From a virus (lineage: Duplodnaviria; Heunggongvirae; Uroviricota; Caudoviricetes): a DNA stretch of 13,805 bases. Positions within the stretch are counted from its first letter, which is position 1. Each line of letters begins with the position of its first letter. The stretch lies in IMG/VR virus record IMGVR_UViG_2703718840_000009, positions 1 to 13,805 of that record. One strand, 5' to 3'. A model generated the notes under the pieces. It did not search any database, was not told where the DNA came from, and saw nothing but the letters and a program-made list of their open reading frames with translations. Made by a program: the position numbers and the translations under genes. Shown piece after piece: positions 1 through 13,805 of the stretch.

Positions 1-585
1 CTATTCGATAATGGGTCCTGTTGGCCATTCAATATCCGGTGCAGTTGATGTATCAACACGGTTCAGCAACACCCGATACTTCTTCCAGGCTTCCAGCAAC
101 GAGTTTTCTTCCTCCGTTGCGATCTCCAGATCCACAGCATCCTGAAGCGGCGCTATATGCTCACTGGCTACCTGCATCAGGCTGTTTTTTGTTTCTTCCG
201 CCTCCCGGATCCGGAACAGTTTTTCTGCTTCCGTATCCTTCACCCAGGCTGTGCCGTTCCACTTCTGATATTCCCCTCCCGGCGACAACCAGGTAACATT
301 TTCCGGTAACGGACCGAGTTCAGAAATAAATAACGCGTCGCCGGAAGCCACGTCATAAACCGTTTTACCCCGATGGTCTTCAACGAGATGCCACGATGCC
401 TCATCACTGTTGAAAACGGCCACAAAGCCAGCAGGAATATCTGGCGGTGCAATATAGGTACTGTTTGCTGGCAGACCTGTATGAGGCGGAATATATGCAT
501 CACCTTCACCAATAAATTCATTAGTTCCGGCCAGCAGATTATAAATTTTTATGGTCCGTGGTTGTTCACTCATTCTGAATGCCAT
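1..585 (-). CDS. tfa: Tail fibre assembly protein Tfa
   Basis: 194-aa ORF ([24 protein letters not shown]...) matches lambda Tfa from memory. Stop codon is at 1-3; start overlaps the stf stop (ATGA). Confidence 0.9.
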
Positions 586-1481
586 TATGCAAGCCTCACA
601 ATATAGTTAAATGCGATGTTTTTGACGGTGTTTTCCGCGTTACCAGCAGCGTTAACGGTGATGGTGTGTCCATGTGAACCAATCGCAACCGAGTGCGTAT
701 GCGCACCAATACCGACAGTATGTGCGTGTGCACCTGCGCTTGCAGCAGTACCCGATACAGAGTGCGTATGAGCGCCTGCAGAAGAAGTGTTAACACTGTA
801 TTTAGAATAATCAGGTGATCCACTTCCCGGAGCACCACTGGAACCACCTGAAACAAATGTCATCGAATGGGTATGTGCACCGGCTGAAGCAGCCGTACCG
901 CTAACACTATGGGTATGCGCACCAGTGTTATTCGTGGATTTAGTGCCGTAATCAAACGACGATGTGGTTTTCGTCCCCAAATCCGTACTGGATACGCTGG
1001 CGCTGTGGGTGTGTGATTTAATGCCGTCCTGTTCCTGAGACAATACGGCTCGATCACTGGCGGGCTTGCCCTTAATCGTCCAGCCACGCATATCAGGGAT
1101 CACGCCTGACGGATAAGCGGCTGCAAGTTTCGGGTAAGCAGATTTGTCAAAAGTCTGCCCCTGCATCAGGGCATAACCAGACGGAACGGTATCTGATGGC
1201 CACGGGATTGGTGCACCGACTGGATAAAACTCTGCAGGAGGATGAGCCGAGGTGTAAAGCTGCGCCCACGGCGACCAGTTTGCGTCGGTCGTATCCCGTC
1301 GTGAACGAATAAATGCCGGAGCATGAGCACCGCTTGTACCACTCCAGCCGATGAGTAACTCACCTTCGCCAACGGCTGTCATCCCTTTCAGGTGAATGAT
1401 ATTTCCATACGCTGTTGGATATCCGTTGTTATACACCTCGTATAACTCAAGACCTGTTGCCCCCTGCGTATTGTCTGTCAA
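585..1481 (-). pseudogene. stf: Side tail fibre protein Stf, C-terminal fragment (~298 codons) truncated at a deletion junction
   Basis: His-rich GAHTHS repeats typical of the lambda Stf C-terminus. The frame stays open upstream into terminase A sequence with no native start; the ORF track start is a TTG. Confidence 0.8.
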
Positions 1482-1657
1482 CGCGGTTGAAAGGGCAGTG
1501 TTTCCCAGCGCCCTTCCTGGTATGCGGATTCTTTCGGGAGATAGTAATTAGCATCCGCCCATTCAACGGCGGTCTGTGGCTCCGGCCTGAACAGTGAGCG
1601 AAGCCCGGCGCGGACAAAATGCCGCAGCCTGTTAACCTGACTGTTCGATATATTCAC
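1478..1657 (-). pseudogene. A: Terminase large subunit A, N-terminal ~57-codon remnant ending at the deletion junction
   Basis: Reverse complement reads [59 protein letters not shown], then departs from lambda A and hits TGA. Start overlaps the nu1 end as in lambda. Confidence 0.75.
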
Positions 1658-2177
1658 TCAGCAACCCCGGTATCAGTTCATCCAGCGCGGCTGCTTTGTT
1701 CATGGCTTTGATAATATCCCGTTTCAGGAAATCAACATGTCGGTTTTCCAGTTCCGGAAAACGCCGCTGCACCGACAGGGGGAGCCCGTCGAGAATACTG
1801 GCAATTTCACCTGCGATCCGCGACAACACGAAAGTACAGAATGCGGTTTCCACCACTTCAGCGGAGTCTCTGGCATTCTTCAGTTCCTGTGCGTCGGCCT
1901 GCGCACGCGTAAGTCGATGGCGTTCGTACTCAATAGTTCCTGGCTGGAGATCTGCCTCGCTGGCCTGCCGCAGTTCTTCAACCTCCCGGCGCAGCTTTTC
2001 GTTCTCAATTTCAGCATCCCTTTCGGCATACCATTTTATGACGGCGGCAGAGTCATAAAGCACCTCATTACCCTTGCCACCGCCTCGCAGAACGGGCATT
2101 CCCTGTTCCTGCCAGTTCTGAATGGTACGGATACTCGCACCGAAAATGTCAGCCAGCTGCTTTTTGTTGACTTCCAT
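1632..2177 (-). CDS. nu1: Terminase small subunit Nu1
   Basis: 181-aa ORF (MEVNKKQLADIFGASIRTIQNWQEQGMPVLRGGGKGNEVLYDSAAV...) matches lambda Nu1 from memory, with an N-terminal HTH. Confidence 0.92.
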   Translation of the reverse strand: MEVNKKQLADIFGASIRTIQNWQEQGMPVLRGGGKGNEVLYDSAAVIKWYAERDAEIENEKLRREVEELRQASEADLQPGTIEYERHRLTRAQADAQELKNARDSAEVVETAFCTFVLSRIAGEIASILDGLPLSVQRRFPELENRHVDFLKRDIIKAMNKAAALDELIPGLLSEYIEQSG

Positions 2178-2189
2178 TGTTCATTCCAC

Positions 2190-2400
2190 GGACAAAAACA
2201 GAGAAAGGAAACGACAGAGGCCAAAAAGCTCGCTTTCAGCACCTGTCGTTTCCTTTCTTTTCAGAGGGTATTTTAAATAAAAACATTAAGTTATGACGAA
2301 GAAGAACGGAAACGCCTTAAACCGGAAATTTTTCATAAATAGCGAAAACCCGCGAGGTCGCCGCCCCGTAACCTGTCGGATCACCGGAAAGGACCCGTAA
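2190..2400 (-). other. cos: Annealed cos site (cosB-cosN-cosQ); 12-nt cohesive-end sequence at about 2355-2366
   Basis: Plus strand 2341-2366 (agcgaaaacccgcgaggtcgccgccc) is the reverse complement of the lambda left end GGGCGGCGACCTCGCGGGTTTTCGCT. It is followed directly by cgtaacctgtcgg, the reverse complement of the lambda right end. Confidence 0.85.
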
Positions 2401-2565
2401 AGTGATAATGATTATCATCTACATATCACAACGTGCGTGGAGGCCATCAAACCACGTCAAATAATCAATTATGACGCAGGTATCGTATTAATTGATCTGC
2501 ATCAACTTAACGTAAAAACAACTTCAGACAATACAAATCAGCGACACTGAATACGGGGCAACCTC

Positions 2566-2760
2566 ATGTCAACGAAGAACAGAACCCGCAGAACAACAAC
2601 CCGCAACATCCGCTTTCCTAACCAAATGATTGAACAAATTAACATCGCTCTTGAGCAAAAAGGGTCCGGGAATTTCTCAGCCTGGGTCATTGAAGCCTGC
2701 CGTCGGAGACTAACGTCAGAAAAGAGAGCATATACATCAATTAAAAGTGATGAAGAATGA
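2566..2760 (+). CDS. Hypothetical small protein with a possible ribbon-helix-helix (Arc/CopG-like) fold
   Basis: 64-aa ORF starting in right-end lambda sequence (catgaggttgccccg). Basic N-terminus then a strand-helix-helix pattern (RNIRFPNQMIEQINIALEQKGSGNFSAWVIEACRRRL). No convincing RBS seen. Confidence 0.35.
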   Translation: MSTKNRTRRTTTRNIRFPNQMIEQINIALEQKGSGNFSAWVIEACRRRLTSEKRAYTSIKSDEE

Positions 2761-2924
2761 ACATCCCGCGTTCTTCCCTCCGAACAGGACGATATTGTAA
2801 ATTCACTTAATTACGAGGGCATTGCAGTAATTGAGTTGCAGTTTTACCACTTTCCTGACAGTGACAGACTGCGTGTTGGCTCTGTCACAGACTAAATAGT
2901 TTGAATGATTAGCAGTTATGGTGA

Positions 2925-3131
2925 TCAGTCAACCACCAGGGAATAATCCTTCATATTATTATCGTGCTTCACCAACGCTGCCTCAATTGCTCTGAATGCT
3001 TCCAGAGACACCTTATGTTCTATACATGCAATTACAACATCAGGGTAACTCATAGAAATGGTGCTATTAAGCATATTTTTTACACGAATCAGATCCACGG
3101 AGGGATCATCAGCAGATTGTTCTTTATTCAT
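2925..3131 (-). CDS. Hypothetical 68-aa protein of the lambda right arm
   Basis: ORF in a visibly AT-rich block at the position of a small ORF I recall near the lambda right end. Confidence 0.5.
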
Positions 3132-3293
3132 TTTGTCGCTCCATGCGCTTGCTCTTCATCTAGCGGTTAAAATATTACTTCAAATCTTTCTGTATGAAGA
3201 TTTGAGCACGTTGGCCTTACATACATCTGTCGGTTGTATTTCCCTCCAGAATGCCAGCAGGACCGCACTTTGTTAAGCAACCAATACTATTAA

Positions 3294-3827
3294 GTGAAAA
3301 CATTCCTAATATTTGACATAAATCATCAACAAAACACAAGGAGGTCAGACCAGATTGAAACGATAAAAACGATAATGCAAACTACGCGCCCTCGTATCAC
3401 ATGGAAGGTTTTACCAATGGCTCAGGTTGCCATTTTTAAAGAAATATTCGATCAAGTGCGAAAAGATTTAGACTGTGAATTGTTTTATTCTGAACTAAAA
3501 CGTCACAACGTCTCACATTATATTTACTATCTAGCCACAGATAATATTCACATCGTGTTAGAAAACGATAACACCGTGTTAATAAAAGGACTTAAAAAGG
3601 TTGTAAATGTTAAATTCTCAAGAAACACGCATCTTATAGAAACGTCCTATGATAGGTTGAAATCAAGAGAAATCACATTTCAGCAATACAGGGAAAATCT
3701 TGCTAAAGCAGGAGTTTTCCGATGGGTTACAAATATCCATGAACATAAAAGATATTACTATACCTTTGATAATTCATTACTATTTACTGAGAGCATTCAG
3801 AACACTACACAAATCTTTCCACGCTAA
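3294..3827 (+). CDS. Hypothetical 177-aa protein of the lambda right arm (true start may be an internal Met)
   Basis: Long ORF in the AT-rich block between cos and bor; an aggaggt RBS-like motif lies inside the 5' end, suggesting a later start. Confidence 0.5.
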
Positions 3828-4116
3828 ATCATAACGTCCGGTTTCTTCCGTGTCAGCACCGGGGCGTTGGCATAATGCAATACGTGTACGCGCTAAACCC
3901 TGTGTGCATCGTTTTAATTATTCCCGGACACTCCCGCAGAGAAGTTCCCCGTCAGGGCTGTGGACATAGTTAATCCGGGAATACAATGACGATTCATCGC
4001 ACCTGACATACATTAATAAATATTAACAATATGAAATTTCAACTCATTGTTTAGGGTTTGTTTAATTTTCTACACATACGATTCTGCGAACTTCAAAAAG
4101 CATCGGGAATAACACC

Positions 4117-4410
4117 ATGAAAAAAATGCTACTCGCTACTGCGCTGGCCCTGCTTATTACAGGATGTGCTCAACAGACGTTTACTGTTCAAAACAAACCG
4201 GCAGCAGTAGCACCAAAGGAAACCATCACCCATCATTTCTTCGTTTCTGGAATTGGGCAGAAGAAAACTGTCGATGCAGCCAAAATTTGTGGCGGCGCAG
4301 AAAATGTTGTTAAAACAGAAACCCAGCAAACATTCGTAAATGGATTGCTCGGTTTTATTACTTTAGGCATTTATACTCCGCTGGAAGCGCGTGTGTATTG
4401 CTCACAATAA
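4117..4410 (+). CDS. bor: Bor lipoprotein (serum-resistance, Iss-like)
   Basis: 97-aa ORF with signal peptide and lipobox (MKKMLLATALALLITGCAQQ), matching lambda Bor from memory. Opposite orientation to the lysis genes, as in lambda. Confidence 0.9.
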   Translation: MKKMLLATALALLITGCAQQTFTVQNKPAAVAPKETITHHFFVSGIGQKKTVDAAKICGGAENVVKTETQQTFVNGLLGFITLGIYTPLEARVYCSQ

Positions 4411-4441
4411 TTGCATGAGTTGCCCATCGATATGGGCAACT

Positions 4442-4903
4442 CTATCTGCACTGCTCATTAATATACTTCTGGGTTCCTTCCAGTTGTTTTTGCATAGTGA
4501 TCAGCCTCTCTCTGAGGGTGAAATAATCCCGTTCAGCGGTGTCTGCCAGTCGGGGGGAGGCTGCATTATCCACGCCGGAGGCGGTGGTGGCTTCACGCAC
4601 TGACTGACAGACTGCTTTGATGTGCAACCGACGACGACCAGCGGCAACATCATCACGCAGAGCATCATTTTCAGCTTTAGCATCAGCTAACTCCTTCGTG
4701 TATTTTGCATCGAGCGCAGCAACATCACGCTGACGCATCTGCATGTCAGTAATTGCCGCGTTCGCCAGCTTCAGTTCTCTGGCATTTTTGTCGCGCTGGG
4801 CTTTGTAGGTAATGGCGTTATCACGGTAATGATTAACAGCCCATGACAGGCAGACGATGATGCAGATAACCAGAGCGGAGATAATCGCGGTGACTCTGCT
4901 CAT
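4442..4903 (-). CDS. Rz: Spanin inner-membrane subunit Rz
   Basis: 153-aa ORF with N-terminal TM segment and coiled-coil body; matches lambda Rz from memory. Confidence 0.9.
4501..4683 (-). CDS. Rz1: Spanin outer-membrane lipoprotein Rz1, nested in the +1 frame of Rz
   Basis: 60-aa ORF inside Rz with lipobox (VVVGCTS) and a proline-rich stretch ([15 protein letters not shown]). Confidence 0.85.
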
Positions 4904-5376
4904 ACATCAATCTCTCTGACCGTTCCGCCCGCTTCTTTGAATTTTGCAATCAGGCTGTCAGCCTTATGCTCGAACTGACCATAACCAGCGCCCGGCAGTG
5001 AAGCCCAGATATTGCTGCAACGGTCGATTGCCTGACGGATATCACCACGATCAATCATAGGTAAAGCGCCACGCTCCTTAATCTGCTGCAATGCCACAGC
5101 GTCCTGACTTTTCGGAGAGAAGTCTTTCAGGCCAAGCTGCTTGCGGTAGGCATCCCACCAACGGGAAAGAAGCTGGTAGCGTCCGGCGCCTGTTGATTTG
5201 AGTTTTGGGTTTAGCGTGACAAGTTTGCGAGGGTGATCGGAGTAATCAGTGAATAGCTCTCCGCCTACAATGACGTCATAACCATGATTTCTGGTTTTCT
5301 GACGTCCGTTATCAGTTCCCTCCGACCACGCCAGCATATCGAGGAACGCCTTACGTTGATTATTGATTTCTACCAT
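4900..5376 (-). CDS. R: Endolysin R (lytic transglycosylase)
   Basis: 158-aa ORF ([35 protein letters not shown]...) matches lambda R from memory; overlaps the Rz start. Confidence 0.95.
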
Positions 5377-5683
5377 CTTCTACTCCGGCTTTTTTAGCAG
5401 CGAAGCGTTTGATAAGCGAACCAATCGAGTCAGTACCGATGTAGCCGATAAACACGCTCGTTATATAAGCGAGATTGCTACTTAGTCCGGCGAAGTCGAG
5501 AAGGTCACGAATGAACCAGGCGATAATGGCGCACATCGTTGCGTCGATTACTGTTTTTGTAAACGCACCGCCATTATATCTGCCGCGAAGGTACGCCATT
5601 GCAAACGCAAGGATTGCCCCGATGCCTTGTTCCTTTGCCGCGAGAATGGCGGCCAACAGGTCATGTTTTTCTGGCATCTTCAT
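5360..5683 (-). CDS. S: Holin/antiholin S (S107/S105 dual start)
   Basis: 107-aa ORF beginning [32 protein letters not shown] with the Met1-Lys2-Met3 dual-start motif and three TM segments. Confidence 0.95.
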
Positions 5684-6088
5684 GTCTTACCCCCAATAAG
5701 GGGATTTGCTCTATTTAATTAGGAATAAGGTCGATTACTGATAGAACAAATCCAGGCTACTGTGTTTAGTAATCAGATTTGTTCGTGACCGATATGCACG
5801 GGCAAAACGGCAGGAGGTTGTTAGCGCGACCTCCTGCCACCCGCTTTCACGAAGGTCATGTGTAAAAGGCCGCAGCGTAACTATTACTAATGAATTCAGG
5901 ACAGACAGTGGCTACGGCTCAGTTTGGGTTGTGCTGTTGCTGGGCGGCGATGACGCCTGTACGCATTTGGTGATCCGGTTCTGCTTCCGGTATTCGCTTA
6001 ATTCAGCACAACGGAAAGAGCACTGGCTAACCAGGCTCGCCGACTCTTCACGATTATCGACTCAATGCTCTTACCTGTTGTGCAGATA

Positions 6089-6145
6089 TAAAAAATCCCG
6101 AAACCGTTATGCAGGCTCTAACTATTACCTGCGAACTGTTTCGGG
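6089..6145 (-). terminator. tR' intrinsic terminator of the 6S transcript
   Basis: On the minus strand, cccgaaac ... gtttcggg stem followed by a U-run (reverse complement of plus-strand 6089-6145). Confidence 0.7.
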
Positions 6146-6282
6146 ATTGCATTTTGCAGACCTCTCTGCCTGCGATGGTTGGAGTTCCAGACGATACGTC
6201 GAAGTGACCAACTAGGCGGAATCGGTAGTAAGCGCCGCCTCTTTTCATCTCACTACCACAACGAGCGAATTAACCCATCGTT
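6089..6282 (-). ncRNA. Lambda 6S RNA (short pR' transcript terminated at tR')
   Basis: Interval between the inferred pR' start and tR'; the sequence matches the lambda pR'-tR' region from memory. The TSS position is approximate. Confidence 0.55.
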
Positions 6283-6320
6283 GAGTCAAATTTACCCAAT
6301 TTTATTCAATAAGTCAATAT
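6283..6320 (-). promoter_or_regulatory. Late promoter pR' with overlapping qut site
   Basis: Minus strand reads TTGACT (-35), 17-nt spacer, TAAATT (-10), as in lambda (ttgacttattgaataaaattgggtaaatttgactcaacgatgg). Confidence 0.65.
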
Positions 6321-6359
6321 CATGCCGTTAATATGTTACCATCCGTGGCAATCATGCTG

Positions 6360-6752
6360 CTAACGTGTGACCGCATTCAAAATGTTGTCTGCGATTGACT
6401 CTTCTTTGTGGCATTGCACCACCAGAGCGTCATACAGCGGCTTAACAGTGCGTGACCAGGTGGGTTGGGTAAGGTTTGGGATTAGCATCGTCACAGCGCG
6501 ATATGCTGCGCTTGCTGGCATCCTTGAATAGCCGACGCCTTTGCATCTTCCGCACTCTTTCTCGACAACTCTCCCCCACAGCTCTGTTTTGGCAATATCA
6601 ACCGCACGGCCTGTACCATGGCAATCTCTGCATCTTGCCCCCGGCGTCGCGGCACTACGGCAATAATCCGCATAAGCGAATGTTGCGAGCACTTGCAGTA
6701 CCTTTGCCTTAGTATTTCCTTCAAGCTTTGCCACACCACGGTATTTCCCCGA
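6360..6752 (-). pseudogene. Q: Antiterminator Q, C-terminal fragment only (~130 codons)
   Basis: C-terminus (SGKYRGVAKLEGNTKAKVLQ ... HKEESIADNILNAVTR) matches lambda Q. The ORF-track extension to 7019 is antisense to bet/exo, so the Q N-terminus is absent. Confidence 0.8.
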
Positions 6753-6948
6753 TAACGATGAAACCATGCAGGAGATTAACACTCTGCTGATCGCCCTGGA
6801 TAAAACATGGGATGACGACTTATTGCCGCTCTGTTCCCAGATATTTCGCCGCGACATTCGTGCATCGTCAGAACTGACACAGGCCGAAGCAGTGAAAGCT
6901 CTTGGATTCCTGAAACAAAAAGCCACTGAGCAGAAGGTGGCAGCATGA
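6748..6948 (+). pseudogene. bet: Bet single-strand annealing protein, C-terminal ~66-codon remnant
   Basis: Reads (PD)[64 protein letters not shown], the lambda Bet C-terminus; stop overlaps the exo start (ATGA). Confidence 0.8.
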
Positions 6949-7625
6949 CACCGGACATTATCCTGCAGCGTACCGGGATCGACGTGAGAGCTGTCGAACA
7001 GGGGGATGATGCATGGCACAAATTACGGCTCGGCGTCATCACCGCTTCAGAAGTTCACAACGTGATAGCAAAGCCCCGCTCAGGAAAGAAGTGGCCTGAC
7101 ATGAAAATGTCCTACTTCCACACCCTGCTTGCCGAGGTTTGCACCGGTGTGGCTCCGGAAGTTAACGCTAAAGCACTGGCCTGGGGAAAACAGTACGAGA
7201 ACGACGCCAGAACCCTGTTTGAGTTCACTTCCGGCGTGAATGTTATTGAATCCCCGATCATCTATCGCGACGAAAGTATGCGTACCGCCTGCTCTCCCGA
7301 TGGTTTATGCAGTGACGGCAATGGCCTTGAGCTGAAATGCCCGTTTACCTCCCGGGATTTCATGAAGTTCCGGCTCGGTGGTTTCGAGGCCATAAAATCG
7401 GCTTACATGGCCCAGGTGCAGTACAGCATGTGGGTGACACGAAAAGATGCCTGGTACTTTGCCAACTATGACCCACGTATGAAGCGTGAAGGACTGCATT
7501 ATGTCGTGGTTGAGCGGGATGAAAAGTACATGGCGAGTTTTGACGAGATGGTGCCGGAGTTCATCGAAAAAATGGACGAGGCACTGGCTGAAATTGGTTT
7601 TGTATTTGGGGAGCAATGGCGATGA
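6945..7625 (+). CDS. exo: Lambda exonuclease (Red alpha)
   Basis: 226-aa ORF ([40 protein letters not shown]...) matches lambda Exo from memory. Confidence 0.95.
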
Positions 7626-7804
7626 AGCATCCTCACGATAATATCCGGGTAGGTGCGATCACTTTCGTCTACTCCGTTACAAAGCGAGGCTGGGTATTTC
7701 CCGGCCTTTCTGTTATCAGAAATCCCCTGAAAGCACAGCGGCTGGCTGAGGAGATAAATAATAAACGGGGAGCTGTATGCACAAAGCATCTCCCGTTGAG
7801 TTAA
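7616..7804 (+). CDS. Small hypothetical protein (lambda orf60a-like); start may be the ATG at 7622
   Basis: Small ORF immediately after exo, overlapping its stop, as in the lambda pL operon. Confidence 0.6.
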
Positions 7805-7968
7805 GAACGAGTATCGAGATGGCACATAGCCTCGCTCAAATTGGAGTCAGGTTTGTGCCAATACCAGTAGAAACAGACGAAGAATTTCATACGTTAGCCG
7901 CATCCCTTTCACAAAAGCTGGAAATGATGGTGGCGAAAGCAGAAGCAGATGAGAGAGACCAGGTATGA
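7777..7968 (+). CDS. Small hypothetical protein (lambda orf63-like)
   Basis: 63-aa ORF overlapping the neighbouring ORFs, in the same order as lambda. Confidence 0.6.
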   Translation: MHKASPVELRTSIEMAHSLAQIGVRFVPIPVETDEEFHTLAASLSQKLEMMVAKAEADERDQV

Positions 7969-8044
7969 CAACCACTGAATGTATTTTTCTGGCAGCGGGC
8001 TTCATATTCTGTGTGCTTATGCTTGCCGACATGGGGCTTGTTCA

Positions 8045-8260
8045 ATGACACCTCAGCAAGAAAACGCCCTTCGCAGCATTGCCCGTCAGGCTAATTCTGA
8101 AATCAAAAAAGCCAGACAGCAGTTTCCGGATAAAAACGTCGATGACATTTGCCGTAGCGTACTGAAGAAGCACCGCGAAACGGTAACGCTGATGGGATTC
8201 ACACCGACTCATTTAAGCCTGGCAATCGGCATGTTAAACGGCGTCTTTAAGGAACGATGA
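8045..8260 (+). CDS. Small hypothetical protein (lambda orf61-region); ORF track extends it upstream to 7979
   Basis: Internal ATG at 8045 gives MTPQQENALRSIARQANSEIKKARQQFPDKNVDD...; no recognisable domain. Confidence 0.45.
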   Translation: MTPQQENALRSIARQANSEIKKARQQFPDKNVDDICRSVLKKHRETVTLMGFTPTHLSLAIGMLNGVFKER

Positions 8261-8358
8261 ACATGAAAAGCAAAATTATCAGGGAGCTACAGGCTCCTTT
8301 TTTATTGCTCGCATTTACCCCCAAGCGTATTAACCAACAATTCAGGGATTAATGGAAG

Positions 8359-8580
8359 ATGGCAGACATCATTGATTCAGCATCAGAAATTGAAGAATTA
8401 CAGCGCAACACAGCAATAAAAATGCGCCGCCTGAACCACCAGGCTGTATCTGCCACTCATTGTTGTGAGTGTGGCGATCCCATAGATGAGCTAAGACGCC
8501 TGGCCGTTCAGGGTTGTCGGACTTGTGCAAGTTGCCAGGAAGATCTGGAGCTTATCAGTAAACAGAGAGGTTCGAAGTGA
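8359..8580 (+). CDS. TraR/DksA-family C4 zinc-finger protein (lambda Orf73-like)
   Basis: 73-aa ORF with CxxC-(17)-CxxC (HCCECGDPIDELRRLAVQGCRTCASC), resembling F-plasmid TraR. Stop overlaps the next ORF start (GTGA). Confidence 0.8.
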   Translation: MADIIDSASEIEELQRNTAIKMRRLNHQAVSATHCCECGDPIDELRRLAVQGCRTCASCQEDLELISKQRGSK

Positions 8581-8990
8581 GCGTAATTCACTCTCAGGCA
8601 CTGCGTGAAGCGGCAGAGCAGGCAATGCCTGACAACTGGGGATTTGACGCGGACCTTTTCCATGAGCTGGTAACACCATCGATTGTGCTGACACTGCTGG
8701 ATGAACGGGAAAGAAACCAGCAATACATCAAACGCCGCGACCAGGAGAACGAGGATATTGCGCTAACGGTGGGGAAACTGCGTGTTGAGCTGGAGACAGC
8801 AAAAATCAAAACTCAACGAGCAGCGTGAGTAGAAGGTGTTATCTCGGATGGAAGTAAGCGTATTGCTGAACTGGAGGCCTGGGTTGAATACACAAGAGCT
8901 GCATACGTAAGAGCAAAAGACAAGGGAGATTTGATCAGAGTTATTACCCGCCAACCAACGGGATTTTACGCTTACGTACCATGTAATTAG
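8577..8990 (+). pseudogene. ea22: ea22-like ORF interrupted by an in-frame TGA at 8826-8828 (83 codons, stop, then 53 open codons)
   Basis: N-terminus MSVIHSQALREAAEQAMPDNWGFDADLFHELVTPSIVL resembles lambda Ea22 (from memory, uncertain). After the TGA the same frame reads VEGVISDGSKRIAELEAWVEYTRAAYVRAKDKGDLIRVITRQPTGFYAYVPCN to TAG at 8988-8990. Confidence 0.5.
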
Positions 8991-9126
8991 GAATCCTTGA
9001 AGTGGCAGCCTAACTGCGGATACACTGAAATGGCGATTTGGTAACATGTTTCGCACAAGGCTGTTACTACACTTAGAGATAATCAGCCATGATTAAACGC
9101 TTTGTAAAAAGTAAAAGGAAATTACA

Positions 9127-9741
9127 ATGAAAAAATCAATACTAATTTTAGGGCTTACGTTAATTGTCTCATCTCAAATACCATCGGCAATGGCAAAAAA
9201 TGAATCAAAACTATGGGTTGTTGTTGATCGAACGGAAAGACATACCTGCCCTTCAAGTAAATGTGGAGTGGCTGGGAAACTATTTTTCAGGGAAGGCGTA
9301 GATTTTCTAGAAAAAAAAGGTGAATGGGTTCGTATAACTGAGCCATATTCAGCCTCATGTGTTGGAGGGGAAAGCGAATATATTAAAGAAGGTAATAAAT
9401 CCTGCACAAGAAAAAATGGAATCGTTAATGGCAAGTTTTCAGAATGGGTTAAACTTAGTGATCTTAGCAGTGAAAGGCCATCAGATCCTGCTGAAAATGC
9501 GAGCGGAGATGATACTTTAATCAAAGGATCTGATGACTACCGTATATACAAAAAAGAGTTTTCTTCGGCAGCTAGGAAGTTAATAAATGAAGGGGTCTGC
9601 ACGGAAAGCGATTTTAAGGAAATCGGAGGGTGGATGGCATCAAGCAATAAGGGTGAAAACATCTATTTCACATATTGCGGAGGAATGACGTTGTCGAACA
9701 GAATATATCTAGACGTTAAAAGTGGAAAGACTTTTAGATAA
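9127..9741 (+). CDS. Hypothetical secreted protein with a possible bacterial SH3-like N-terminal domain (non-lambda)
   Basis: 204-aa ORF with RBS aagga ~8 nt upstream and a signal peptide (MKKSILILGLTLIVSSQIPSAMA). Visibly AT-rich, several Cys, followed by a terminator hairpin. Confidence 0.8.
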   Translation: MKKSILILGLTLIVSSQIPSAMAKNESKLWVVVDRTERHTCPSSKCGVAGKLFFREGVDFLEKKGEWVRITEPYSASCVGGESEYIKEGNKSCTRKNGIVNGKFSEWVKLSDLSSERPSDPAENASGDDTLIKGSDDYRIYKKEFSSAARKLINEGVCTESDFKEIGGWMASSNKGENIYFTYCGGMTLSNRIYLDVKSGKTFR

Positions 9742-9812
9742 TATGATATTACCAATGACAGCATTAATTTAATGCCTCCATAGAATTATCTCCAGGAAGT
9801 AAGTATAAGAAA

Positions 9813-9850
9813 AGCCCGCACAATGAGCTGCTGCGGGCTTTGTGTTATTC
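9813..9850 (+). terminator. Putative intrinsic terminator after the secreted-protein gene
   Basis: Stem agcccgca / tgcgggct with ~11-nt loop, followed by a T-rich tract (ttgtgttatt). Confidence 0.55.
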
Positions 9851-10034
9851 GCCATATTTTATGAAGCAAATACGACACTATAGATAATTAAGCGTTACTG
9901 GTTGTCGATTCCTCACTCATTCCTGCTGATGGCTGTCTTCTTGTATGTGCCATTGAAGGGTAATATCGCGTAAAAAGATACCGGAAGTATCCGCGCCGCC
10001 ATGATTGTCTTTCTCCTGATGCAGGAAAAGCAGA

Positions 10035-10373
10035 ATGACTAGATCAGCAGCAGAGCGCAAAGCCGATCAGAGAGCCAAGCAAGCATCATCCGGTATGCGT
10101 AAGCTGGAGCTTGTACTTGATGCTCAGGAAATTGAAATGCTGGAGCGTAACTGAGCCACGCGCCGCTTCAGGCGTGCGCCTTACGAGTTTGGTGAGTACA
10201 TAGCATTACTGAGCCGCCAGGATGATGCACGTGTGCGCTGGCGTATAAAATCGATTAGCAGAAAACGTTGCCGTAAGTGCGGCGAGAGAGTTCCTGTTAA
10301 TTCATGCCCGTGTAATGGTGACTCACAATACTGGGTGACCAAAGGCTGGCACGAAACAAAATTAATGATATAA
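10035..10373 (+). pseudogene. Zinc-ribbon small ORF (possible Ea8.5 counterpart) split by an in-frame TGA at 10152-10154
   Basis: ATG at 10035 with RBS aggaaaag gives 39 aa (MTRSAAERKADQRAKQASSGMRKLELVLDAQEIEMLERN). After the TGA the same frame stays open to TAA at 10371-10373 and contains CRKCGERVPVNSCPC; a GTG at 10233 could restart it. Confidence 0.4.
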
Positions 10374-10401
10374 ATCTCTGTGACATGTCACGGAGGCGGC
10401 A

Positions 10402-10830
10402 ATGAAATTAGACCAGCAATATCTAAAAGATCTACTTATCGCATTCGAAAAAACTTATGGCCCTGACACGATGCTTAGTGAACTAGAGGATAATGGCTTT
10501 AATAGATATGACCAAAATTTTATTTTCCATATGCGATTATTATGTGACTACGAATTAATAGTTAGGGTTGATGGAAAACCAGGGTTCGGTCATATAATGT
10601 CCAACGAGTTAGGGGAAGGTGTTGAATATAGTTGGATCGAAGTACCACTGAGGTTGACAGCAAGAGGGCATGATTTTATTGCTGACTTACGTCAAAAGGA
10701 GGTCTGGCAAGCTATAAAAACAAACTTTAAGGATGAGGGAATTAGTACTCTTATGAGTGTTTCAAAATCACTAGCAAAAGTCTTTGCAAGGAAAAAAATA
10801 AAAGATATTACAGGAATAGATATTGAATAA
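10402..10830 (+). CDS. Hypothetical 142-aa protein, no signal peptide (non-lambda)
   Basis: Strong RBS ggagg 5 nt upstream; visibly AT-rich; preceded by a 12-bp palindrome and followed by a terminator hairpin at about 10877-10900. Confidence 0.75.
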   Translation: MKLDQQYLKDLLIAFEKTYGPDTMLSELEDNGFNRYDQNFIFHMRLLCDYELIVRVDGKPGFGHIMSNELGEGVEYSWIEVPLRLTARGHDFIADLRQKEVWQAIKTNFKDEGISTLMSVSKSLAKVFARKKIKDITGIDIE

Positions 10831-10876
10831 TTCTTAGCATCAAGCAACTACTGCCTTTGGTGAAAATTATATCTGA

Positions 10877-10900
10877 ACTCGCTACGGCGAGTTTTGTTTT
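10877..10900 (+). terminator. Putative intrinsic terminator after the 142-aa gene
   Basis: 6-bp stem actcgc / gcgagt with loop tacg, followed by tttgtttt. Confidence 0.55.
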
Positions 10901-10913
10901 ACGGAGATGATAA

Positions 10914-11081
10914 ATGCACTTCAGAGTCACTGGTGAATGGAATGGAGAACCATTCAACAGAGTTATCTAAGCAGAGAACATCAATGACTGCTATGACAAC
11001 TGGATGATATGGGCGCAGATAGCACATGCAGACATAACCAATATTCGAATTGAAGAACTGAAAGAACACCAAGCCGCCTGA
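10914..11081 (+). pseudogene. Small ORF upstream of xis (lambda orf55-position) interrupted by an in-frame TAA at 10968-10970
   Basis: Reads MHFRVTGEWNGEPFNRVI, TAA, then AENINDCYDNWMIWAQIAHADITNIRIEELKEHQAA to TGA at 11079-11081. The 168-nt span fits the 55-codon lambda ORF I recall at this position. Confidence 0.4.
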
Positions 11082-11120
11082 TGGCGGTTTTTTCTTGCGT
11101 GTAATTGCGGAGACTTTGCG

Positions 11121-11339
11121 ATGTACTTGACACTTCAGGAGTGGAACGCTCGCCAGCGACGCCCAAGAAGCCTTGAAACAGTTCGTCGATGGGTGCGCGA
11201 ATGCAGGATATTCCCTCCTCCGGTTAAGGATGGAAGAGAGTATCTGTTCCACGAATCAGCGGTAAAGGTTGACTTAAATCGACCAGTAACAGGTAGCCTT
11301 TTGAAGAGGATCAGAAATGGGAAGAAGGCGAAGTCATGA
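11121..11339 (+). CDS. xis: Excisionase Xis
   Basis: 72-aa ORF (MYLTLQEWNARQRRPRSLETVRRWVRECRIFPPPVKDGREYLFHESAVKVDLN...) matches lambda Xis; 3' end overlaps int. Confidence 0.95.
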   Translation: MYLTLQEWNARQRRPRSLETVRRWVRECRIFPPPVKDGREYLFHESAVKVDLNRPVTGSLLKRIRNGKKAKS

Positions 11340-12387
11340 GCGCCGGGATTTACCCCCTAACCTTTATATAAGAAACAATGGATATTACTGCTACAGGGAC
11401 CCAAGGACGGGTAAAGAGTTTGGATTAGGCAGAGACAGGCGAATCGCAATCACTGAAGCTATACAGGCCAACATTGAGTTATTTTCAGGACACAAACACA
11501 AGCCTCTGACAGCGAGAATCAACAGTGATAATTCCGTTACGTTACATTCATGGCTTGATCGCTACGAAAAAATCCTGGCCAGCAGAGGAATCAAGCAGAA
11601 GACACTCATAAATTACATGAGCAAAATTAAAGCAATAAGGAGGGGTCTGCCTGATGCTCCACTTGAAGACATCACCACAAAAGAAATTGCGGCAATGCTC
11701 AATGGATACATAGACGAGGGCAAGGCGGCGTCAGCCAAGTTAATCAGATCAACACTGAGCGATGCATTCCGAGAGGCAATAGCTGAAGGCCATATAACAA
11801 CAAACCCTGTCGCTGCCACTCGCGCAGCAAAATCAGAGGTAAGGAGATCAAGACTTACGGCTGACGAATACCTGAAAATTTATCAAGCAGCAGAATCATC
11901 ACCATGTTGGCTCAGACTTGCAATGGAACTGGCTGTTGTTACCGGGCAACGAGTTGGTGATTTATGCGAAATGAAGTGGTCTGATATCGTAGATGGATAT
12001 CTTTATGTCGAGCAAAGCAAAACAGGCGTAAAAATTGCCATCCCAACAGCATTGCATGTTGATGCTCTCGGAATATCAATGAAGGAAACACTTGATAAAT
12101 GCAAAGAGATTCTTGGCGGAGAAACCATAATTGCATCTACTCGTCGCGAACCGCTTTCATCCGGCACAGTATCAAGGTATTTTATGCGCGCACGAAAAGC
12201 ATCAGGTCTTTCCTTCGAAGGGGATCCGCCTACCTTTCACGAGTTGCGCAGTTTGTCTGCAAGACTCTATGAGAAGCAGATAAGCGATAAGTTTGCTCAA
12301 CATCTTCTCGGGCATAAGTCGGACACCATGGCATCACAGTATCGTGATGACAGAGGCAGGGAGTGGGACAAAATTGAAATCAAATAA
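11317..12387 (+). CDS. int: Integrase Int (tyrosine recombinase)
   Basis: 356-aa ORF (MGRRRSHERRDLPPNLYIRNNGYYCYRDPRTGKEFGLGRDRRIAITEAIQ...) matches lambda Int over its full length. Confidence 0.97.
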   Translation: MGRRRSHERRDLPPNLYIRNNGYYCYRDPRTGKEFGLGRDRRIAITEAIQANIELFSGHKHKPLTARINSDNSVTLHSWLDRYEKILASRGIKQKTLINYMSKIKAIRRGLPDAPLEDITTKEIAAMLNGYIDEGKAASAKLIRSTLSDAFREAIAEGHITTNPVAATRAAKSEVRRSRLTADEYLKIYQAAESSPCWLRLAMELAVVTGQRVGDLCEMKWSDIVDGYLYVEQSKTGVKIAIPTALHVDALGISMKETLDKCKEILGGETIIASTRREPLSSGTVSRYFMRARKASGLSFEGDPPTFHELRSLSARLYEKQISDKFAQHLLGHKSDTMASQYRDDRGREWDKIEIK

Positions 12388-12483
12388 TGATTTTATTTTG
12401 ACTGATAGTGACCTGTTCGTTGCAACAAATTGATAAGCAATGCTTTTTTATAATGCCAACTTAGTATAAAAAAGCAGGCTTCA
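12388..12483. other. attL: attL junction: phage P' arm with Int arm-type sites, 15-bp core (about 12461-12475), then bacterial arm
   Basis: Reverse complement reads tgaagcct-GCTTTTTTATACTAA-gttggcattataaaaaagcattgcttatcaatttgttgcaacgaacaggtcactatcagtcaaaataaaatca: bacterial-side sequence, lambda core, then lambda P' arm. Confidence 0.88.
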
Positions 12484-12521
12484 ACGGATTCATTTTTCTA
12501 TTTCATAGCCCGGAGCAACCT

Positions 12522-13805
12522 GTGAACACATTTTCAGTTTCCCGTCTGGCGCTGGCATTGGCTTTTGGCGTGACGCTGACCGCCTGTAGCTCAACCCCGC
12601 CCGATCAACGTCCTTCTGATCAAACCGCGCCTGGTACCTCTTCTCGCCCGATTCTGTCGGCAAAAGAAGCGCAGAATTTCGATGCTCAACACTATTTTGC
12701 ATCCCTGACACCAGGTGCTGCAGCGTGGAATCCTTCCCCGATTACCCTGCCTGCGCAACCTGACTTTGTTGTCGGCCCGGCGGGCACTCAAGGTGTAACG
12801 CATACCACGATTCAGGCGGCGGTAGATGCGGCAATTATCAAGCGTACCAACAAGCGCCAGTATATTGCCGTGATGCCTGGTGAGTATCAGGGAACGGTAT
12901 ATGTCCCTGCCGCTCCGGGTGGAATTACTCTGTACGGTACAGGTGAAAAACCGATTGATGTGAAGATTGGGCTTTCCCTTGATGGTGGCATGAGCCCTGC
13001 CGACTGGCGTCACGACGTCAACCCGCGCGGCAAATATATGCCAGGTAAACCAGCGTGGTATATGTACGATAGCTGCCAGAGCAAACGCAGCGACAGTATC
13101 GGTGTTCTCTGCTCTGCGGTCTTCTGGTCACAAAACAATGGCCTGCAACTGCAAAATCTGACCATCGAAAACACGCTGGGCGATAGCGTAGATGCAGGTA
13201 ACCATCCGGCGGTGGCACTGCGTACTGATGGTGACCAGGTACAGATTAACAACGTTAACATTCTCGGTCGTCAGAACACCTTCTTTGTCACCAACAGCGG
13301 TGTGCAGAACCGTCTGGAAACGAATCGTCAGCCGCGTACGCTGGTGACCAACAGCTACATTGAAGGGGATGTGGATATCGTTTCTGGTCGCGGCGCAGTG
13401 GTGTTCGATAACACCGAATTCCGCGTGGTGAACTCACGTACTCAGCAAGAAGCGTATGTGTTTGCACCGGCTACGCTGTCCAACATTTACTACGGTTTCC
13501 TCGCCGTAAACAGCCGTTTCAATGCTTTCGGTGATGGTGTGGCGCAACTGGGCCGCTCGCTGGATGTTGATGCCAATACCAACGGTCAGGTGGTGATCCG
13601 TGATAGCGCCATCAACGAAGGTTTTAACACGGCTAAACCGTGGGCCGATGCGGTGATCTCTAATCGTCCGTTTGCGGGTAATACCGGCAGCGTAGATGAT
13701 AACGACGAAATACAGCGCAATCTGAATGACACTAACTACAACCGCATGTGGGAATACAATAACCGCGGCGTGGGTAGTAAAGTGGTTGCAGAGGCGAAGA
13801 AGTAA
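12522..13805 (+). CDS. ybhC: Host outer-membrane lipoprotein YbhC (pectinesterase-family / acyl-CoA thioesterase)
   Basis: 427-aa ORF with GTG start, signal peptide and lipobox (LTAC); recognised as E. coli YbhC, the gene beside the lambda attachment site. Visibly higher GC than the prophage accessory regions. Confidence 0.88.
   Translation: MNTFSVSRLALALAFGVTLTACSSTPPDQRPSDQTAPGTSSRPILSAKEAQNFDAQHYFASLTPGAAAWNPSPITLPAQPDFVVGPAGTQGVTHTTIQAAVDAAIIKRTNKRQYIAVMPGEYQGTVYVPAAPGGITLYGTGEKPIDVKIGLSLDGGMSPADWRHDVNPRGKYMPGKPAWYMYDSCQSKRSDSIGVLCSAVFWSQNNGLQLQNLTIENTLGDSVDAGNHPAVALRTDGDQVQINNVNILGRQNTFFVTNSGVQNRLETNRQPRTLVTNSYIEGDVDIVSGRGAVVFDNTEFRVVNSRTQQEAYVFAPATLSNIYYGFLAVNSRFNAFGDGVAQLGRSLDVDANTNGQVVIRDSAINEGFNTAKPWADAVISNRPFAGNTGSVDDNDEIQRNLNDTNYNRMWEYNNRGVGSKVVAEAKK

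Follow-up and report, generated by a model that had tools for sequence, protein, structure and literature searches.

A head-to-head Q/bet deletion joint in a decaying lambda-like prophage at att-lambda, and the recurrence of its breakpoints

Central to the locus described here is the question of how two lambda genes, the late antiterminator gene Q and the Red annealing protein gene bet, came to meet head to head within a few nucleotides of each other, each stripped of its 5' end. The stretch of DNA analysed, hereafter the window, is a viral record of 13,805 nucleotides (IMG/VR IMGVR_UViG_2703718840_000009, positions 1 to 13,805). A preliminary description, made from the sequence alone, had placed a junction of Q and bet within positions 6740-6760 and read it as a deletion that, by lambda gene order, took out everything from most of bet to the first third of Q, adding that it did not look like a restriction-ligation construct. 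The comparisons reported below bear this out, and it is now most probable (at roughly 0.85) that the junction is the scar of a natural and recent deletion in a lambda-like prophage, made by illegitimate joining at break-prone sites. The object itself adds one more to the familiar class of cryptic lambdoid prophages left by illegitimate deletion; the recurrence of its breakpoints, together with a TA/CC signature at them, is the part worth pursuing.

Alignment by blastn against the lambda reference (NC_001416) resolves the locus into two blocks and defines both breakpoints. The left block, window 2367-6754, corresponds to the reverse strand of lambda, 48502 to 44115, and mismatches it at 3 of 4388 nt (99.9%), while the right block, window 6753-8875, corresponds to lambda 32220 to 30094 at 96.6% identity. 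The two overlap by a single TA dinucleotide at 6753-6754, common to Q (lambda 44116-44115) and to bet (lambda 32220-32219), and a three-way comparison of the sequences shows the same microhomology: the window reads ...GGTATTTCCCCGA-TA-ACGATGAAACC..., lambda Q reads ...CCCCGA-TA-CCTTGTG... and lambda bet reads ...CTCCGGT-TA-ACGATG.... Two long, near-perfect reference blocks that meet head to head rule out chance. Lambda 32221-44114, about 11.9 kb in lambda terms, has no counterpart in the window; the equivalent of this segment was lost and the ends were joined at the common TA, fusing a 5'-truncated Q to a 5'-truncated bet. With two reference-collinear flanks, an overlap of a few bases and no filler DNA, the joint has the form of an illegitimate deletion of the microhomology type. 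No att core or att-like overlap, as would mark a deletion promoted by Int, is present at the joint, the window's sole core match being attL, and no Chi sequence (GCTGGTGG) was seen by eye in the retained end of bet.

Translation confirms the change of frame across the joint. The minus strand reads ...SGKYRGVAKLEG... down to the Q stop at 6360, and on the plus strand DNDETMQEINTLL... continues as far as the bet stop at 6948, where the start of exo at 6945 is overlapped. The retained Q fragment (6360-6754, minus strand; lambda 44509 to 44115, codons ~78-207) is the 3' 63% of the gene and specifies the C-terminal 130 residues of the protein, and the bet fragment (6753-6948, plus strand; lambda 32220 to 32025) comprises its last 65 codons. 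Gene callers report a fusion ORF of 188 aa across the joint (6360-6926, minus strand), made up of 57 residues of antisense bet followed by Q residues ~78-207, and the Pfam Antiterm domain is complete inside the Q part. A promoter scan detected no promoter-like site upstream of this ORF, the only promoter detected near the joint being pR'.

In lambda terms, the missing DNA comprises most of bet, the genes from gam to N, the immunity region, O/P, the nin region and Q codons 1-77. The window indeed holds no repressor, N, pL/pR, ori, O/P or nin genes, in keeping with the earlier statement that repressor, replication genes and early promoters are gone. The longer list of lost genes given in the preliminary description (rexAB, cI, cro and others) is drawn by analogy with lambda; the right arm is only 96.6% lambda, and the ancestor's own immunity region is deleted in the sister prophages too.

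The element that carries the joint is a defective lambdoid prophage at att-lambda, recognised both by its site and by its lost modules, and the window contains almost the whole of it. For comparison, use was made throughout of the prophage of PSJ-12 (locus L001; source human faeces, Ecuador), which occupies the same site. The left edge of the remnant is the tail fibre assembly gene tfa (1-585, minus strand, 194 aa; 94% to lambda 22535 to 21824), annotated in PSJ-12 as tail fiber assembly protein WP_001491017.1, followed by the C-terminal part of stf, the side tail fibre gene (585-1481, minus strand; Pfam Collar and Phage_fiber), of which relatives L037-L045 carry intact versions of 1007-1120 aa. 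Window 1488-2366 matches lambda 880 to 1 at 99.5% by blastn and includes an N-terminal fragment of the terminase large subunit gene A (1488-1657, minus strand; lambda 880 to 711) and an intact terminase small subunit gene Nu1 (1632-2177, minus strand, 181 aa; nohD/DNA-packaging protein in the PSJ-12 annotation). It ends at cos (2355-2378), where the blastn blocks meet and the lambda 48502/1 boundary falls at window 2367/2366.

Between cos and the joint lie an intact bor gene for the serum-resistance lipoprotein (4117-4410, plus strand; seen in the ORF list and annotated in PSJ-12 and BL21(DE3)) and the lysis cassette (4442-5683, minus strand; 99.9% to lambda), in which S (5360-5683, 107 aa), R (4900-5376, 158 aa) and Rz (4442-4903, 153 aa) are all intact. 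The late promoter pR' with its qut region follows (6289-6317, minus strand; TTGACT-17-TAAATT), and TATTGAATAAAATTGGGTAAA, a qut-like sequence of the kind that phage records annotate, can be seen there. On the right of the joint, an intact exo (6945-7625, plus strand, 226 aa), whose exact protein is widespread, is followed by small early-left genes and then by a 2-kb accessory segment without a lambda match (8876-10865, plus strand), which lies between ea22' and xis, the usual position of accessory genes in lambdoid phages, and carries an ORF of 204 aa without a Pfam match (9127-9741) and a DUF2513 ORF (10402-10830). Intact xis (11121-11339) and int (11317-12387), on the plus strand and 98.7% to lambda 29333 to 27724, are followed by the attL common core GCTTTTTTATACTAA (12461-12475, minus strand), an exact 15-bp match with 0.01 expected by chance, and by ybhC (12522-13805, plus strand; 100% to PSJ-12 ybhC), the chromosomal gene that flanks att-lambda. 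It is because the attL core and ybhC adjoin int that the element can be placed at att-lambda; in PSJ-12, bioA and ybhB are found on the opposite side of the prophage.

A second large deletion, which had escaped the preliminary description along with the recurrence of the breakpoints and an HpaI site at the bet breakpoint, joins the stf and A fragments at 1487/1488. Here some 20.9 kb carrying the head and tail genes is gone (lambda ~881-21244 has no counterpart in the window), and the ends share 1 nt, CAACGCGGT-T-ACCCGA of stf being joined to GCCCGC-T-GAAAGG of A at lambda ~880; the stf partner reads GCGGT-TA-CCCGACC. The stf/A junction is common to loci L038 and L040, and its terminase A endpoint is re-used by a different deletion, of 2.2 kb, in IMG/VR locus L149.

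What is left after these losses would be expected to lack induction, replication, efficient excision and host lysis, the last because S, R and Rz sit behind pR'-tR' without a functional Q. The int and xis genes would likewise be left without pL and cII, and bor and the accessory ORFs could persist. One deletion strips away repressor, replication and antitermination and leaves the lysis genes and bor trapped in the chromosome, and the junction documents another route by which a lambda-type prophage turns harmless.

It is the sister prophages that set the direction of the change. Over 1-757, 1442-2912, 2909-4844 and 6753-13805 the PSJ-12 prophage matches the window at 100%, and it keeps Q codons 1-77, ninI/H/G, N', ea10, cIII, kil, gam and the whole of bet. 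Its own lesions comprise a joint of Rz' to Q codons 1-77, a joint of ninF to N', a 684-bp deletion in stf and an insertion of ISKpn26. A look-up of the tfa protein gave further states: locus L036 resembles PSJ-12 without ISKpn26; L038 (GCA_015203535) has Rz' joined to the end of gam with bet intact; and L041 shows yet another deletion state of the same prophage. Because sisters with 100%-identical flanks (PSJ-12, L036 and L038) retain parts of the missing DNA, the polarity is that of a deletion, and a lambdoid organisation in which Q and bet would be collinear without one, the contrary possibility named in the preliminary description, is excluded. Deletion alone could not turn the prophage of the window into that of PSJ-12, nor the reverse, and therefore both descend from a fuller ancestor. 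Since the 11 kb of DNA that they share contain no substitutions, the losses, the one at Q/bet among them, are recent. As an observation in its own right, the same prophage is met in at least four decay states (L001, L036, L038, L040, L041) with shared DNA 99.9-100% identical, so that near-identical strains preserve deletions, successive or alternative, at unusual density.

The endpoints of the Q/bet deletion are not peculiar to it. In a set drawn from the returned gene-index loci and from IMG/VR and metagenome scans, the bet endpoint .../TAACGATG (also given as .../TAACGATGAAACC; lambda 32219/20, a slash marking the break) is joined to five classes of partner, the window's Q included. These are gam at codon 15 (L016 and others; wild-type CCCCCTT/TCC, overlap TT, 21 complete genomes); ninG, head to head (L017 and others; wild-type GCTGCTT/TTTCC, overlap TT, 6 complete genomes); the middle of gam (L022 and others; wild-type GCCATTA/CCCGTG, overlap TTA, 7 complete genomes); the P gene in antisense (L033 and L035; wild-type CTGCTGTA/CCTGAGG, overlap TA); and Q, in this window, with overlap TA. 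The 60-aa bet' ORF created by the truncation is present in 1,109 blocks of the gene index, and the endpoint spans several prophage lineages at different att sites. On comparison of these sequences, at least five independent deletions end at one base of bet.

The Q endpoint (lambda 44115/6) is common to three prophages, those of the window, PSJ-12 and E143. In PSJ-12 (L001 9353-9358) it reads CAGCCCA-TA-CCTTG, where Rz' is joined to the N-terminus of Q and the opposite half of the gene is kept, and in E143 (L025 ~6001), a P22-like prophage, a fragment of a capsid gene is joined to Q codons 1-77. Two further sites behave in a similar manner: a lysozyme-gene site, CGATA-TA-CCGGAAAC, is used by two deletions with opposite sides kept, and the P-gene site is re-used with the opposite side kept (further 80 IMG/VR loci). 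A full-text literature search found no paper describing these hotspots. As both the Q and the bet site are re-used in other prophages, the endpoints would be set by the local sequence, or by an activity upon it, and not by chance. That breakpoints coincide to the base across unrelated lineages gives the comparison a value wider than this locus.

A single Q base from which the window deleted rightward and PSJ-12 leftward, the two prophages being otherwise identical, is what would be seen had an ancestral insertion sequence (IS) in Q or bet been excised in a transposase-dependent manner with the aid of the IS-excision enhancer, flanking DNA being lost on one side so that the deletions all start at the former insertion point. 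This enhancer is reported for over 30% of E. coli assemblies, and the deletions it leaves beside the excised IS range from a few nt to more than 40 kb and are joined by microhomology (PMC9943667). In these respects, from a few nt to tens of kb with one endpoint fixed, they resemble the deletions described here (PMC9943667), and the prophages compared show IS activity (ISKpn26 in PSJ-12; IS629, IS2 and IS66 in relatives). However, the fixed endpoint of such deletions is an IS end, and neither an IS nor an IS footprint is present at the window's sites: no IS sequence was found at 6700-6800, the joint shows neither an IS copy nor a target duplication, and no fetched locus has an IS at either breakpoint, the junction census described below showing IS insertions elsewhere only. 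IMG/VR scans for left-flank variants of bet returned SNP alleles only, and scanning for altered flanks of Q gave no hits. The retained halves of Q in the window and PSJ-12 overlap by no more than 3 nt, the same Q endpoint occurs in the unrelated P22-like prophage, and for the bet endpoint, found in several lineages whose att sites differ, ISs would have had to insert repeatedly at one base. Excision of an IS with adjacent deletion is thus an unlikely origin of the joint.

The distribution of the identical joint bears on whether it is real. The survey that had been proposed for it found it only in GCA_001576305.1 (L040), which is 100% identical to window 1-9585, joint included. The exact 188-aa product occurs in two contigs of the gene index, the one shown being GCA_001576305.1, and none of four alternative start codons gave an exact-product match there. 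Of 5,426 complete E. coli genomes, not one has a site that spans the joint, and the identical joint was not found in GTDB species representatives, JGI metagenomes or IMG/VR. The junction is effectively private to essentially one strain. A chimeric contig that fuses two prophage fragments in a draft genome could give such a pattern, the only public source found being a draft assembly and genomes with several lambdoid prophages being hard to assemble. Yet assemblers join sequences that share k-mers tens of bases long, far more than 2 nt; the single-copy flanks are contiguous in a 258-kb contig and 100% identical to the window over 9.6 kb; the joint is recorded in two contigs; and dozens of complete genomes have comparable junctions at that base of bet, which makes an assembly artefact very improbable.

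A laboratory origin, as restriction-religated lambda or a recombineering product, is scarcely credible: laboratory lambda and the left block agree at 99.9%, the bet breakpoint lies inside the lambda HpaI site GTTAAC (32217-32222) and a single HindIII site, AAGCTT, lies at 6723-6728, 25 nt from the joint and, as had been remarked, off it, but the Q breakpoint is at no restriction site, the joint GATAAC is no hybrid of two sites, the right arm is only 96.6% lambda and carries the 2-kb non-lambda insert, no marker, FRT, cassette or vector DNA is present, the closest relatives are natural isolates such as PSJ-12, and engineered joins look otherwise, those made with BamHI in DE3 appearing in the census as GGATCC overlaps.

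For a natural deletion, the course of events may be pictured as follows. A break, or a stall, would have arisen at one of two break-prone sites or at both; the ends would then have been joined at the 2-nt TA, by ligation of cohesive ends or by microhomology-primed joining, and cells rid of the lethal early region would have been favoured. Such selection fits the other head-to-head losses of the immunity region at att-lambda, namely ninG'/bet', P'/bet' and, in NCTC9087, ren'/exo. The mechanism is read from the scar, and a TA is too short to separate the ligation of 2-nt cohesive ends from microhomology-primed end joining or template switching.

What the breakpoints have in common was examined in a census of all-against-all junctions in the fetched loci, from which IS insertions and gene-boundary mosaics were excluded. 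Among 21 junctions, those of the first census together with some analysed by hand, 12 have TA inside the overlap, against about 2 expected, and TACC/GGTA with TA on the break is found at 8 of ~33 partner sites against 0.65 expected, both being post hoc statistics from a few dozen loci in which several junctions share the bet site. The context of the crossover is often TA/CC(N)G on the left partner and TA/AC on the right, most of the junctions without TA carry one-base variants of it (TT, TT, TG/CA), and where a site is used twice with opposite sides retained, TA is present in both products. A staggered break of 2 nt or a crossover of 2 bp would fit this pattern. Imperfect microhomology (TA.C) fits it in part, three independent bet partners reading GGTA and not GTTA. 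The TA/CC signature is accordingly given here as an unexplained observation and not as a result. With respect to secondary structure, the Q site falls within a 41-nt quasi-palindrome whose folding is significant (z = -3.1, with 1 of 200 shuffles folding as well), and the hairpin at the bet site is not significant (z = -0.5).

It is possible, though doubtful, that the decay of lambda-like prophages is non-random in a stronger sense, with a few sites broken repeatedly in independent lineages by a sequence-selective activity. The sites would be bet 32219/20 (five classes of partner), Q 44115/6 (three), and the P-gene, lysozyme-gene and terminase A ~880 sites (two each), with the crossover mostly on TA and often in the context N-TA-CC(N)G, CC opening the deleted side. 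Such an activity would make a 2-nt staggered break or a 2-bp crossover, and the Q/bet joint of the window would be two such sites ligated together. Candidates might include the junction-resolving nuclease of the nin region (RusA), a topoisomerase or an unknown nuclease, perhaps operating during abortive induction, with Gam shielding the ends from RecBCD. RusA cuts 5' of CC. If the coincidence of breakpoints were borne out by a full survey, fragile or enzyme-targeted sites, and not random deletion and selection, would shape prophage domestication, and the named sites would make the responsible activity directly testable.

Several known specificities were compared with the breakpoints and set aside. 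The IS5 target YTAR fits the bet, N and ninF sites and fails at Q, P and gam. No one restriction specificity suits all of them: that of HpaI accommodates bet and the PSJ-12 N endpoint in CGGTTAAC, and Q and the others have no GTTAAC. BsaWI-like WCCGGW, Csp6I G^TAC and KpnI-like sites do not fit all of the sites, and integron, Hin-type, Xer, Cre and lambda-Int cores match over no more than 4-5 bases. The text of a gyrase Topo-Seq paper contains no explicit core motif (PMC6379681).

Viewed against the known systems, the element takes its place with the prophages that Ramisetty and Sudhakari, in 2019, reportedly called 'grounded'. DLP12, Rac and Qin are cryptic or defective lambdoid prophages of E. 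coli. Like these, the element of the window has lost induction, replication and virion genes by deletion and keeps lysis genes, bor, int/xis and accessory genes. Unlike them, it occupies att-lambda itself; it is also very young, with a left half that is 99.9% lambda and shared DNA that shows no differences from the sisters; and near-identical strains show it in several alternative states of decay.

With regard to the joining, short-homology illegitimate recombination in lambda lysogens was reportedly studied by the Ikeda laboratory with Spi-/lambda-bio assays. There, too, a few homologous bases suffice without RecA-type homology, and hotspots are known; those events are phage-host joins in aberrant excision, whereas in the window both ends are intraprophage and the overlap is only TA. 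The nin5 deletion and DE3, of laboratory origin, are likewise internal deletions of lambda early or nin DNA, the nin5 gap in BL21(DE3) appearing in the census as a deletion of 2,806 bp, but their endpoints differ from those of the window, which has no engineering signatures.

A number of further observations were made at neighbouring sites. In the ninF/N deletion of PSJ-12, the N endpoint lies in the same 8-mer as the bet site. In EA2 (L074, 16504-17010), a gene for an HNH endonuclease splits ninF between lambda 42374 and 42379, an insertion that lies 45 nt from the ninF endpoint of PSJ-12 (L001 ~11140). From such sequences, it is conceivable that phage homing nucleases could be a source of site-specific breaks. 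At the ren'/exo joint of NCTC9087 (L004, 14300-14320), ren ends at CCGGTAAT and is followed by ~20 nt of exo 5' sequence with several substitutions and indels relative to other alleles, a patch that could stem from error-prone repair or simply be a divergent allele. A recurrent site at the 5' end of exo (L004 and L032) was considered and set aside, as re-alignment places the L004 joint ~20 nt upstream, beside this diverged patch. Finally, many bet alleles in IMG/VR (L047-L073) are identical up to CCGGTTA and diverge after it (TTAGCGATG... and further substitutions), at about window 6755, and the boundary of this mosaic therefore adjoins the deletion hotspot.
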